Below, piece by piece: positions 25,834 through 59,107 of a stretch of DNA of 64,000 nucleotides. The stretch's first letter is position 1. Each line of letters begins with the position of its first letter. The stretch comes from Methanobacteriota archaeon (GTDB taxonomy: Archaea > JAADCQ01 > Methanopyri > Methanopyrales > Methanopyraceae). The DNA lies in the NCBI GenBank assembly GCA_027064425.1, contig JAMOPO010000057.1, positions 1-64,000 of the forward strand, given 5' to 3'. The position numbers and the translations under genes were made by a program. The notes below the pieces were generated by a model. It was not told where the DNA came from. It saw only the letters and a program-made list of their open reading frames with translations, and searched no databases.

Positions 25834-25967
25834 GGGTGTCCCCGGGCGTGGGCCCCCCTCTCATCCCGACGCGGTGCGGCGTCGAGGGGGTCCCGCCGGG
25901 GCCTGTGCCGGGGCGCCGTACCGGGCGATCATCGACGGCTGACGCCGACTCACGCCCGTCCCCGGGG
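25834..25967 (-). ncRNA. Two-hairpin box H/ACA guide RNA candidate
   Basis: Each hairpin has lower stem, pocket, upper stem, GA/GAUGA K-turn and ACA 14-15 nt below the upper stem (ACA at 25904-06 and 25837-39). Confidence 0.75.
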
Positions 25968-25978
25968 ATGAGCGTGAC

Positions 25979-26037
25979 GGCCTCAGTCGGCGCCGCACTC
26001 TTCACCGATCAGGGCCGGGCAAGAGTCGTCATCGGCC
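25979..26037 (-). ncRNA. Box C/D guide sRNA candidate
   Basis: GGCC/CCGATGA-CGACTCTTGCCCGGCC-CTGA-TCG-GTGAAGA-GTGCGGCGCCGA-CTGA-GGCC; C box contains the upstream gene's stop codon. Confidence 0.85.
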
Positions 26038-33825: not shown

Positions 33826-34549
33826 ACCCCAGGTACACCCCTGCACCCACGGCGGCCACGGACACGAGGCCCAGCAGGATCCACCCGGTCACGTCCGAGC
33901 GAGCCCCAGCGGCCCGCTTCAGCCCCCGCGCCAGCCGCTCCATGACCTCCTTCACCTTCTTCCCCGCCTTCTCGAAGACCGACTTCACGCCCGACGCGAT
34001 CTTACTCACGGCGTGACCGATCGCCTTACCGACGGCCCTGACGGCCTCACTCACGCCCTTACCGACGCCACCTGATCCACCGCCCTTGCCTCCGCCACCG
34101 CCACCGAACAGGCGGCTCAGGACTCCACCTCCTCCTCCGGAGGATGCGCCTCCCTTACCGCCTCCTCCTCCGCCGCCACCTCCACCGCCGGCGGACGGGT
34201 GCCCGCCGGCTCCGCCACCGCCGCCCTTGCCACCACCGCCTTTCTTCCCGCCACCACCTCCCTTACCGCCTCCTCCCGAGGGCTTGCTGGGCTTGCCGTG
34301 CGCGGCGCCCCCTCCCCCGTGACCTCCCCCGCCCCGGCCCGCGGACTTGGGCGACTTCCCCTTAGGGGCCGGGGCGGGGTGTGAGGCGGGAGGGGGCGCC
34401 GCGTGGCTTCCTCCACCACCCTTTCCTCCGCCTCCGGACGACCCCGACACCGAGGGTGCCGGGGGCGGTGGCGGCAGGACCTGAGCCTCGGCCGGGATCA
34501 GCGCCGCGAGGAGGATCGCGACGATCGCCGCAGCAGCGGCACCGCGCAA
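33803..34549 (-). CDS. Gly/Lys/Pro-rich surface protein with signal peptide and C-terminal TM anchor
   Basis: TTG 34549; signal ending AEA; PPPPP; GGGGK repeats; WILLGLVSVAAVGAGVYLGF. Confidence 0.75.
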   Translation of the reverse strand: MRGAAAAAIVAILLAALIPAEAQVLPPPPPAPSVSGSSGGGGKGGGGSHAAPPPASHPAPAPKGKSPKSAGRGGGGHGGGGAAHGKPSKPSGGGGKGGGGGKKGGGGKGGGGGAGGHPSAGGGGGGGGGGGKGGASSGGGGGVLSRLFGGGGGGKGGGSGGVGKGVSEAVRAVGKAIGHAVSKIASGVKSVFEKAGKKVKEVMERLARGLKRAAGARSDVTGWILLGLVSVAAVGAGVYLGFRYDYWR

Positions 34550-35856
34550 GCTATCAGCCCCGCCAGTGGTGATAGCGCAGTCTTTACGGCTTTTCCGACC
34601 AGGAGGAGGCCGAGCCCGACCCCGAGCGCCATCGACACCAGGTTCCACGGCTCGGGCAGCTCAGGGAGCCACCCACCGAGCCACCCGCCCGACTGCCGCT
34701 GCGCCTCGCCCGCGGTGACGTCGGAGATGCGGACCGGGATCTTCCGGTACCCTTCCAGGTACTCGGTGTACAGCCGCTTGACCTCCTCGTACTCCGGGAG
34801 CAGCTCCTCGCGGACCAGCCTGGCCGCCCTCCTCGTCTGACCGCCCTCCAGCAGTGCCGCGACCCGCTCGCACTCGCCGGACATCTCCCGGAGCAGCGAG
34901 GAGATCCGGCTCGCCAGCCCGGCCAGGTGGCGCAGCAGGTCCGCGTAGTCGGGGTGCCTCCCGGCCGACTCCTCCAGGTACCGCGCCGTCCGGCTCCAGA
35001 CCTCGGCCGCCATCGCGTACCAGTGGGCGAGCTTCCGGTAGCCCTCCGGCGTGGGCGGCACGCGGCCTCCCTCGAGCGCGTACATGTACAGCGCCTCGAG
35101 CAGGGCCTTGTCGAGCTCCGTGCGGTAATTGTCGTAGTTCGGCGGCATCTCCTGGCCGACGAAGTAGTACCCGTTCTCGAAGGTGACCGCCGGGATGCCG
35201 GCTCTGGCCACGGGCGCGGTGACCCACGGTGGTGACGTGCCCGTCTGCCGCGGGTCCACGCGGGCGCCGATCACGCCCGCCAGGGCCTCACAGATCTCCA
35301 GAGCCTTGCGGTACGAGGTGGGGTTGTCGTTCCCGTGGACGGGGCCGGCCGGGATCAGGATGAACTCTGAGACGCCCCACCAGGGCCGGTGCGCGTGCAC
35401 GTCGATGAACAGCTCCGGCCGCCCGGTGATCCCGACGCCCACCTTGCGGCCGAGCTCCTCGGGGTTCAGCACGTAGTGGAGCACGTGGTGGTAGAACGTC
35501 AGCTGGCCCAGGTCGCGGGAGACCTGGTAATCTCGCCGCCGGTCGCCGGTCGTGTAGTACTCCTTCGGTATCCTGATCCATGAGACGACGAGCGTGCCCT
35601 TGAACTCGCCGGAGTACCTCACGAACCACTGCACGGCGTTGAACATGCACTGGTGGGCCTGGTGCTCGAGCGGGTGGACGCCCAGGGAGATCCAGACGAA
35701 GTGCCCGCTCCCGTTCTTCCACACGTAGTACTCGACGGGGACGCGGTAGGTCACGCCGTTCAGCGTGACCTGGTAGACCTCCTTAAGGTGCCCGTACTCC
35801 AGCGCGGTTGCTCCCGCTGGAATCAGGGTGATCGCGAGGAGGAGCGTGGGTAGCAT
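34498..35856 (-). CDS. Secreted M14-like zinc carboxypeptidase domain protein with C-terminal membrane anchor
   Basis: ATG 35856; signal peptide; GVHPLE (HxxE), FIDVHAH, GIPAVTFE; C-terminal TM helices. Confidence 0.72.
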   Translation of the reverse strand: MLPTLLLAITLIPAGATALEYGHLKEVYQVTLNGVTYRVPVEYYVWKNGSGHFVWISLGVHPLEHQAHQCMFNAVQWFVRYSGEFKGTLVVSWIRIPKEYYTTGDRRRDYQVSRDLGQLTFYHHVLHYVLNPEELGRKVGVGITGRPELFIDVHAHRPWWGVSEFILIPAGPVHGNDNPTSYRKALEICEALAGVIGARVDPRQTGTSPPWVTAPVARAGIPAVTFENGYYFVGQEMPPNYDNYRTELDKALLEALYMYALEGGRVPPTPEGYRKLAHWYAMAAEVWSRTARYLEESAGRHPDYADLLRHLAGLASRISSLLREMSGECERVAALLEGGQTRRAARLVREELLPEYEEVKRLYTEYLEGYRKIPVRISDVTAGEAQRQSGGWLGGWLPELPEPWNLVSMALGVGLGLLLVGKAVKTALSPLAGLIACAVPLLRRSSRSSSRR

Positions 35857-35889
35857 CCGCGGTCCCCCGGGCGCGGTGAGGGAGGAAAG

Positions 35890-36030
35890 TAATGTACCCG
35901 GCGGCCAGGTCGCCCGGTCACGGAACGGCGTCACGGCCTACTCCCGGGCGTGACGGGTGGCTGTACCGGGAGCGTGACAGCGGGGTTCATCGCGCGGTGA
36001 ACACCGCCTCACCCCGCCGGGGGCCCCGAC
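35890..36030 (-). ncRNA. Two-hairpin box H/ACA guide RNA candidate
   Basis: Two K-turn hairpins each ending in ACA (35962-64, 35893-95) 14-15 nt below the upper stem; TTATAGAA TATA at 36047-54. Confidence 0.8.
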
Positions 36031-36074
36031 CGGCCGGAGCCTCGCCTTCTATAACTTCTCGGGGGTGCACGTGC

Positions 36075-37349
36075 GTGGTCGTGGTGAAGGAGGGTGAGTA
36101 CGCGATCCGGGACCCCTCCCTGGCGCCCAAGGGTCGGGACATGATCGAGTGGGCCCGCGACCACATGCCCGTGCTGCAGCTCATCCGGGAGCGGTTTGAG
36201 GAGGAGCGGCCGCTGGAGGGCGTCACGATCGGGATGACCCTGCACCTGGAGGCGAAGACGGCGGTCCTCGTGGAGACGCTGATGGCGGGCGGCGCGGAGG
36301 TGGCGATCACGGGCTGCAACCCGCTGTCGACGAAGGACGAGGTGGCGGCGGCGCTGGTGGAGGAAGGCGTGCACGTGTACGCGTGGCGCGGTGAGACTCG
36401 GGAGGAGTACTACGAGAACATCGACCGGGTGCTGAGCCACGAGCCGGACATCGTCGTGGACGATGGGGCGGACTGCATCACGCGGTTGCACCTGAAGTTC
36501 CCGGAGCTGGCCGAGGAGGTCATCGGCGGGACGGAGGAGACGACGACCGGCGTGCAGCGGCTCCGGGCCATGCACCGGGACGGGGAGCTGAAGTTCCCGG
36601 TGATCGCGGTGAACGACGCGAAGACGAAGTACCTCATGGACAACCGGTACGGGACGGGCCAGAGCGCGCTGGACGGGCTGATGCGGGCGACGAACGTGCT
36701 GATCGCCGGGAAGACCGTGGTCGTGGCGGGCTACGGCTGGTGCGGTCGGGGCATCGCGCGGCGGGCGCGGGGCCTGGGCGCGGACGTGATCGTGGTGGAG
36801 GTGGACCCGATCAAGGCGATGGAGGCCGTGTTCGACGGGTTCCGGGTCATGCCGATGGACAAGGCGGCGGAGGAGGGTGACATCTTCATCACGGCGACCG
36901 GCAACCGGGACGTGATCCGCGGCGAGCACATCGAGAAGATGAAGGACGGGGCCATCCTCGCCAACGCCGGCCACTTCGACGTGGAGATTGACAAGGAGTA
37001 CCTGGAGGAGAACTGCGAGGAGAAGATCGAGCGGCGCGGGGGCCTGGTCACGGAGTACCGCATGCCGGACGGGCGTCGGATCTACCTCGTCGCGGAGGGC
37101 CGGCTCGTGAACCTCGCGGCGGGCGAGGGGCACCCCATCGAGATCATGGACATCAGCTTCGCCCTGCAGGCGCTCTCGATCGAGCGGCTCGTGCAGGAGG
37201 GCGAGTCGATGGAGCCCGGCGTGTACGACGTCCCGTCCGAGATCGACCGGAAGGTCGCCGAGCTGAAGCTCGAGTCGATGGGCGTCGAGCTCGAGGAGCT
37301 CACGCCGGAGCAAAAGGAGTACCTGAGGAGCTGGAAGGAGGGCACGTGA
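36075..37349 (+). CDS. ahcY: S-adenosylhomocysteine hydrolase
   Basis: GTG 36075; [62 protein letters not shown]. Confidence 0.97.
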
Positions 37350-58991: not shown

Positions 58992-59107
58992 TGGTGCCGG
59001 GGCCGGGATTTGAACCCGGGACCTCGGGGTATCCCAGGCCCGTGTCACCCTCACGGGGTCATCGGGCCCTATGAGCCCCGCGCTCTACCAGGCTAAGCTG
59101 CCCCGGC
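58992..59107 (-). tRNA. tRNA-Met(CAU), elongator type, with 39-nt intron (59031-59069) at 37/38; C8; encoded CCA
   Basis: GCCGGGG/CCCCGGC acceptor, CGGGG/CCCCG anticodon stem, TTCAAAT loop; BHB: CUCA pairs with intron UGGG, bulges UA|G and AU|A. Confidence 0.95.

Follow-up and report, generated by a model that had tools for sequence, protein, structure and literature searches.

The locus lies on the minus strand of a window of 64,000 nt (the whole stretch of DNA that was analyzed, positions 1 to 64,000 of contig JAMOPO010000057.1, assembly GCA_027064425.1), between a divergently oriented gene for S-adenosyl-L-homocysteine (AdoHcy) hydrolase and a downstream gene without a Pfam family. The minus strand from 36054 to 35890, as read out directly from the window, is letter for letter the sequence written in the original prediction, which had placed a two-hairpin H/ACA guide RNA with its own TATA box at this position. 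The features are as follows, with the two sides of a stem separated by a slash.

36075..37349, plus strand: S-adenosyl-L-homocysteine hydrolase gene, likely start GTG 36075 (or 36081/36084), not ATG 35892
36047..36054, minus strand: TATA-like element TTATAGAA, with a purine-rich GAGAAG (BRE-like) just before it; plus-strand reading TTCTATAA
36024..36027, minus strand: putative transcription start zone, placed by GGGCCCCC, at which the orthologue begins in print; 20-23 nt below the TATA-like element (19-22 nt in a count from the end of the element)
35962..36030, minus strand: whole of hairpin 1 with its ACA box (sequence, pairing, six-species alignment)
36030-36024 / 35971-35965, minus strand: hairpin 1 lower stem, GUCGGGG / UCCCGGU
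36023-36019, minus strand: hairpin 1 5' guide, CCCCC
36018-36011 / 35986-35979, minus strand: hairpin 1 upper stem, GGCGGGGU / ACCCCGCU
36010-36009 and 35991-35987, minus strand: hairpin 1 K-turn, GA and GAUGA (GAU bulge plus GA), with the apical stem-loop between them
35978-35972, minus strand: hairpin 1 3' guide, GUCACGC
35964-35962, minus strand: hairpin 1 ACA box
35893..35958, minus strand: whole of hairpin 2 with its ACA box (sequence, pairing, six-species alignment)
35958-35954 / 35900-35896, minus strand: hairpin 2 lower stem, ACCCG / CGGGU
35955-35952, minus strand: contains the hairpin 2 5' guide (C)GUC, plus the unpaired A 35951; UCA follows ACCCG
35951 / 35910, minus strand: hairpin 2 A.R layer
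35950-35944 / 35917-35911, minus strand: hairpin 2 upper stem, CGCCCGG / CCGGGCG
35943-35942 and 35922-35918, minus strand: hairpin 2 K-turn, GA and CGUGA (CGU bulge plus GA), with the apical stem-loop between them
35910-35901, minus strand: hairpin 2 3' single strand ACCUGGCCGC, including the 3' guide CCUGGCC (35909-35903)
35895-35893, minus strand: hairpin 2 ACA box
35884..35892, minus strand: T-rich tail UUACUUUCC directly after the last ACA, the probable termination site
34498..35856, minus strand: downstream gene without a Pfam family, likely start ATG 35856, not GTG 35934

The succession of stem, pocket, stem, and apical loop followed by an ACA box is thus present twice (ACA at 35964-35962 and 35895-35893). 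The locus was compared with its counterparts in five other Methanopyrus genomes (G001 to G005; the genome of the window is G000). Both hairpins in six out of six species contain eight layers and a tandem G.A that form a 10-layer GA stem with a 3-nt bulge, a count that takes in non-Watson–Crick layers (layers 9-10 of hairpin 1 in G001 and G002, layer 10 of hairpin 2 as A.A or A.G) and that is partly circular for hairpin 2, where the A.R layer 10 was counted as a layer only after the target had been seen. In each of the six species, and for either hairpin, exactly 14 nt separate the GA stem and pocket from the ACA. Canonical archaeal motifs are described with 14-16 nt to the ACA, a lower stem of 7-9 bp and 8-11 layers in the GA stem (every crystal structure shows 10), and “H/ACA-like” RNAs with a lower stem that is shorter or absent (Toffano-Nioche et al. 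2015, PMC4652768). The lower stem of hairpin 1, as encoded in the DNA of the six species, has 7, 7, 7, 6, 5, and 5-of-6 pairs, and that of hairpin 2 has 4-5 bp (7 bp in a changed register in G004); these stems are short compared with the canonical 7-9 bp, yet within the range of the described noncanonical members. The K-turn motif (5' GA, 3' NNN-GA, canonical apical stem) was found in both hairpins of five species and only in hairpin 1 of G004, so that at the level of the motif each hairpin of the window would offer a binding site for L7Ae. The G004 orthologue (L041:1501-1645) carries a degenerate hairpin 2 K-turn, in which AA faces GC where the other species have GA on both sides, with unchanged guide strands, and its hairpin 2 lower stem forms only in a shifted 7-bp register (CCGGCGG/CCGUCGG). 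The proteins of the H/ACA ribonucleoprotein are encoded in the genome of the window, with profile scores of 480.8 bits for Cbf5, 84.2 for Nop10, 31.9 for Gar1 and 102.4 for L7Ae, all above the curated cut-offs.

The claim of an own TATA box stands in part: an element exists at 36054-36047, with hairpin 1 as drawn beginning only 16 nt downstream of it, but it perhaps also serves the divergent AdoHcy hydrolase gene, where GTG 36075, the first in frame, is reached 20 nt past the element. On both strands of the intergenic region (window 36047-36077), TTATAGAA / TTCTATAA is the sole AT-rich element, and it may act as a shared bidirectional promoter from which both the sRNA and an AdoHcy hydrolase mRNA without a leader would be transcribed. 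The element is conserved in G000, G003, and G005 only, is weaker in G001 and G002 and is not recognizable in G004. The published sequence of the orthologue in Methanopyrus kandleri begins GGGCCCCCGAC and ends ...ACACCUUUA (PMC3695527). A 5' end at the published position would leave only three nucleotides of the hairpin 1 lower stem (3-4 bp). Because the TATA element of archaeal promoters is centered near -26/-27, its spacing here also favors a start inside this stem. The RNA may therefore start within the drawn lower stem of hairpin 1 and cut the 7-bp stem; against this, the complementarity of the lower stem is kept between species by G.U, A-U, or G-C at the variable pair next to the ACA (-1). 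A single terminator-like site was identified on the minus strand, formed by the stem 35910-35896 followed by ACATTACTTT.

The RNA had also been said to explain spurious N-terminal extensions of both flanking ORFs, and this was borne out to different degrees on the two sides. For the plus-strand ORF (35892..37349) the extension is supported by the AdoHcyase Pfam domain, which begins at residue 69 of the 485 amino acids. For the minus-strand ORF it is plausible only: ATG 35856 opens a hydrophobic N-terminus (MLPTLLLAITLIPAGATA), and an aligned ATG with an upstream GGGGGA is found in G003 and G005. The RNA lies 37 nt upstream of this ATG, the next one on the same strand. Furthermore, the RNA region contains 1-nt and other nontriplet indels between species that would shift a reading frame, and both long ORFs that cross the RNA are most likely over-extended.

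RNA-seq analysis of M. kandleri reported six H/ACA box sRNAs, one of which is listed in the sheet “Small RNAs” of Supplementary Table S1 as “H/ACA box RNA Nr1” at position 356800 with orientation neg and an RNA-seq coverage of 3000 (Su, Tripp and Randau 2013, NAR 41:6250; PMC3695527). The counterpart of the locus in G002 (356814-356952, minus) is letter-identical to this published sequence from GGGCCCCC to its end (PMC3695527, Supplementary Table S1). For the genome of the window itself, a search of sequencing runs listed six entries of DNA or unknown type, from three studies, and none of RNA. The RNA has thus been reported before, although its only entry in print is in a supplementary table and Rfam has no family for it. 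A search of the whole window at the Rfam gathering thresholds returned no family at this place, and a search of 35600-36400 at E<=10 returned no H/ACA family and only chance matches (E>=0.44).

Thermodynamic folding alone says nothing about the structure in this stretch of 75% GC. The minimum free energy has a z-score of -0.39, 64 out of 200 shuffled sequences fold equally well or better, and the minimum free energy fold differs from the H/ACA fold. RNAalifold kept the upper part of hairpin 1 and redrew hairpin 2. Energy-based folding is of no help at this GC content; the case rests on the comparison of genomes. The drawn structure pairs 88.2% of the cells in the alignment of five species, compared with at most 52.7% for controls in which the pairing partners were slid. 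Two-sided pair changes among the five close species number only two, which is reached by 320 out of 500 shuffles. The G004 orthologue is altered on both sides in layers 9, 8, 7, and 6 of the hairpin 1 upper stem, where different Watson–Crick pairs keep the pairing.

Conservation follows the parts of the drawn structure. Among the columns of the six-species alignment, the hairpin 1 5' guide (5/5), GA (2/2) and most of the 3' guide (5/7) are invariant, as are the hairpin 2 UCA (3/3) and 3' guide (7/7) and both ACA boxes (3/3 each), compared with only 5/45 and 4/40 columns in the flanks. Identity to the window sequence ranges from 84/145 to 127/140 in the RNA body and from 29/94 to 53/92 in the flanks. 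When 41 genomes were searched at the DNA level, four of the five other Methanopyrus genomes gave clear matches and the rest gave only noise. A covariance model of the drawn structure identified one strong copy in each of the six Methanopyrus genomes, at 124-149 bits in five of them, and it recovered the divergent copy of G004 as the sixth (50 bits, E 3e-6); the same model gave zero matches at E<=1 in 55 archaeal genomes outside the genus. Synteny extends to G004 at the level of long ORFs, which lie at the corresponding places and orientations on both sides of its copy. The model also matches G002:720394-720506, which corresponds to the published H/ACA RNA Nr3. A match outside the window at G000:C52:73719-73851 (minus, 35.9 bits, E 0.0013), for which the analogous G002 match is Nr3, is probably another H/ACA sRNA of the genome of the window.

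Overall, with the hallmarks of the family visible in the sequence of both hairpins, an orthologue on the same relative strand that was published as an H/ACA sRNA, and Cbf5, Nop10, Gar1, and L7Ae encoded in the genome, the two-hairpin H/ACA assignment of the original prediction holds. The locus is read here as a two-hairpin box H/ACA guide sRNA of ~135-140 nt on the minus strand, the orthologue of M. kandleri “H/ACA box RNA Nr1”, with a probability of about 0.9.

No target for Nr1 is given in the examined main-text passages and small-RNA table of PMC3695527, and the targets proposed here from guide complementarity would be new. Neither a pseudouridine or modification map of Methanopyrus rRNA nor a target assignment for Methanopyrus H/ACA RNAs was found in the accessible literature. 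No 16S or 23S rRNA gene was found in the assembly of the window (57 contigs, completeness 99.17%), and the targets were therefore tested on congeneric rRNAs (16S of G001, G002, G003, and G004; 23S of G001, G002, G004, and G005). The target proposed in the original prediction for the second pocket, GGCCAGG-UN-GAC(G), was recovered in four out of four 16S sequences as GAUGAAGGCCAGG-UU-GACGACC. All four contain the hairpin 2 target GGCCAGGUUGACG (GGCCAGG-UU-GACG). The CCUGGCC/GGCCAGG duplex has 7 bp (-13.4 kcal/mol) and the CGUC/GACG duplex 4 bp (-2.9 kcal/mol), leaving U991-U992 (G002 numbering) unpaired. In a MAFFT alignment U991 falls at about E. coli 1020 in helix 33, an approximate equivalence in a variable region.

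The candidate sites were scanned with a geometry fixed at 14 nt with an adjacent 5' guide, a setting chosen after matches had been seen; an unconstrained search gave many matches that need an open upper stem, and the fixed geometry was preferred. With this geometry, 16S U991 is the top site for hairpin 2 among 564 U sites in the G002 rRNAs (score 31, next 23), and dinucleotide-shuffled rRNAs reach a score of 31 in 41 out of 500 (G002) and 38 out of 500 (G001) trials. The statistics are modest for the targets of both hairpins. With U991, the guides of five species form 7+4 bp and that of G004 forms 7+3; the site ranks highest among those that all six guides can pair. U991 is thus the predicted pseudouridylation target of hairpin 2. 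Two sites in the 23S rRNA were judged weaker: U2435 (8+5, with at least three wobble pairs and 13 nt from the ACA) and U2787 (8+3, with four wobbles and a GA stem that must open).

The target written out for the first pocket, GCGUGAC-UN-GGGG, fared differently and is absent as an exact match from the congeneric rRNAs that were searched. The best site for hairpin 1 is U1974 of the 23S rRNA (GUGAC-UA-GGGGG, 5+5 bp, near E. coli 1761), which is the clear top match in five species with a score of 28 against 18 for the next site; shuffled rRNAs reach 28 in 24/500 and 20/500 trials. The G004 guide reads GUCUC and its 23S region is unchanged, which places a U.U mismatch in the middle of the duplex (-2.0 kcal/mol). 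None of the rRNA sites is kept by the hairpin 1 guides of all six species, and U1974 is a weak candidate for the target of hairpin 1. Outside the rRNAs, a search of three genomes for the exact complement of GUCACG plus CCCCC returned four matches, the same number as the reversed-pattern control, in nonorthologous contexts and within no Rfam RNA. A genome-wide scan found no hairpin 1 sites among the 35 tRNAs of G000. The strongest match to the hairpin 1 guide in that genome (C29:9916 plus, 8+8, GGCGUGAC-UC-GGGGGCUC) was treated as chance, since it overlaps an opposite-strand ORF of 642 aa and G002 lacks an orthologous site.

In the proposed mechanism the RNA would be transcribed from the TATA element at 36054-36047, with a start probably near 36027-36024, and would end at the T-rich tract just past the second ACA. 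L7Ae would bind to each K-turn, and Cbf5-Nop10-Gar1 to the lower stem and the ACA, binding roles that are established knowledge for archaeal H/ACA ribonucleoproteins. In hairpin 2, CCUGGCC is predicted to pair with GGCCAGG of the 16S rRNA and (C)GUC with GAC(G), so that U991 would be presented to Cbf5 and converted to pseudouridine. Hairpin 1 would work with a like geometry on an uncertain site, possibly 23S U1974. A fuller version of this scheme combines a lineage-specific U991 pseudouridine directed by hairpin 2 with a hairpin 1 whose transcription starts inside the lower stem, which would make it a truncated “H/ACA-like” motif, here in a methanogen, and whose target has drifted among Methanopyrus species (GUCAC becoming GUCUC in G004); it is rather unlikely that the scheme holds in all of these parts.

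It is possible, though the suggestion is a tentative one, that the RNA is an H/ACA sRNA in which hairpin 2 alone is a working rRNA guide and hairpin 1 is an orphan that serves as a scaffold for ribonucleoprotein assembly, guides modification of a non-rRNA or fast-evolving target, or represents a truncated “H/ACA-like” motif. The loss of every rRNA site across the six hairpin 1 guides points in this direction, as do a best site of only 5+5 bp that is broken in G004, the exact-complement search in three genomes with no conserved match, the tRNAs of G000 without a site, and a published 5' end that leaves 3 nt of the lower stem, truncated lower stems being known from Pyrobaculum (PMC4652768). Against it, hairpin 1 keeps CCCCC, its K-turn, its ACA and five of seven 3' guide positions invariant in six species, and the 23S site is the clear top match in five species (28 vs 18). 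Since the 10-layer and 14-nt geometry of hairpin 1 is held in G004 by four compensatory changes, selection on a working pocket can be argued.

It is very improbable that the locus holds no guide RNA and is instead a conserved structured leader or promoter (the 5' UTR of the downstream gene for a putative secreted protein, or a region that controls the divergent AdoHcy hydrolase) that resembles H/ACA hairpins. Such a reading could draw on the short distance to the next same-strand ATG (37 nt), on the position of the only intergenic AT-rich element, 20 nt away from GTG 36075 of the hydrolase gene, and on the ease with which GC-rich sequence makes hairpins. It is contradicted by the published orthologue, a discrete RNA that ends at a T-tract right past the ACA, by conservation that peaks in the single strands of the pockets and in the ACA boxes while the promoter is not conserved in G004, by the exact 10/14 geometry found twice over in six species, and by the recovery of the published Nr3 (G002:720394-720506) with the same covariance model. 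Genuine coding N-terminal extensions of the ORFs 35892..37349 (+) and 34498..35934 (-), both of which are open across the region, are extremely improbable, given the AdoHcyase domain that runs from residue 69 onward, the nontriplet indels between species and the long spurious ORFs that high-GC genomes yield on both strands (27 ORFs in 3 kb here). The two-hairpin H/ACA guide sRNA is thus retained as the reading of the locus.

Other RNAs were noted in the same window. The minus strand at 25845-26036 contains a C/D box sRNA and, immediately after it, another H/ACA-like RNA that has two hairpins and two ACA boxes, and the whole stretch is conserved in six out of six genomes of the genus. Its C/D part (25981-26036) matches Rfam sR47 at 41.4 bits, and in G002 its counterpart encompasses “C/D box sRNA 28”, published at 346543; the H/ACA-like part (25904-25998) matches the covariance model of the present RNA at 30.6 bits (E 4.9e-4). 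This H/ACA-like RNA is absent from the list of six in Su et al. 2013 (PMC3695527) and may be an unlisted seventh Methanopyrus H/ACA RNA. It is presumably the first H/ACA RNA that was implied when the original prediction called the present one the second. Elsewhere in the window, a tRNA match at 58995-59107 (minus, 52.3 bits) extends over 113 nt for a model of 71 positions, which suggests that this tRNA gene contains an intron.

The finding matters little beyond annotation. Because the RNA is missing from Rfam, automated pipelines miss it and stretch both neighboring ORFs over it. What is added here to the published entry is an alignment of six species with a covariance model, the 10-layer and 14-nt geometry in both hairpins, a concrete predicted target for hairpin 2 (16S U991 in helix 33), and caution about the target and the lower stem of hairpin 1.

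The closest known RNA is Nr1 itself. It shares with the window copy the two-hairpin layout, the guide strands, the K-turns, and the two ACA boxes (RNA-body identity of G000 and G002 107/140), as well as a divergent AdoHcy hydrolase gene upstream and an ORF of no known family downstream. The two copies differ in species, in the TATA element, which is stronger in the window, in the hairpin 1 lower stem (7 pairs, three of them wobble, in the window and six G-C/C-G pairs in G002) and in the 3b.3n pair of the hairpin 1 K-turn (U-A in the window and G.U in G002). The predicted targets of a C/D box sRNA in the supplement of PMC3695527 include “H/ACA box sRNA 1-41 (-22.70)”, which would mean a possible 2'-O-methylation of the Nr1 orthologue.

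The Pyrococcus RNAs Pab105/Pf3 and Pab35/Pf6 are alike in their tandem H/ACA motifs, each with a K-turn, in an ACA or ANA located 14-15 nt from the target U and in a bipartite complementarity to rRNA with a dominant 3' guide duplex, a dominance that is stressed by Muller et al. 2008 (PMC2377435). The Methanopyrus RNA shows no detectable sequence homology to them (the Rfam and the 55-genome covariance-model searches were empty), and it differs in its lower stems (4-7 bp compared with 7-9) and in the 3' single strand of hairpin 2 (9 nt compared with the canonical 5-6). In the 16S rRNA, U991 precedes the U in GGUGCAUGG by 32 nt. The latter U is presumably the Pab19 site and, if so, U991 corresponds to neither position 995 nor position 1017 of P. 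abyssi. U991 is likewise absent from the Pyrococcus sites in Table 1 of Muller et al. 2008 (PMC2377435).

Truncated “H/ACA-like” RNAs are so far described from Pyrobaculum, with a few Pyrococcus candidates also proposed, and Methanopyrus is not mentioned in the paper (PMC4652768). The Methanopyrus RNA differs from the Pyrobaculum sRNAs in that the DNA of all six species has 5-7 bp of lower-stem complementarity, the ACA is intact, and the lower stem of hairpin 2 is closed, and it comes from a methanogen of the euryarchaea rather than from a crenarchaeon. Were the published 5' end the true start, hairpin 1 would nevertheless resemble these sRNAs, with 3-4 lower-stem pairs, a 10-layer GA stem and the canonical distance to the ACA, and could be likened to Pae_sR207, an intermediate with a lower stem of 3 bp (PMC4652768).
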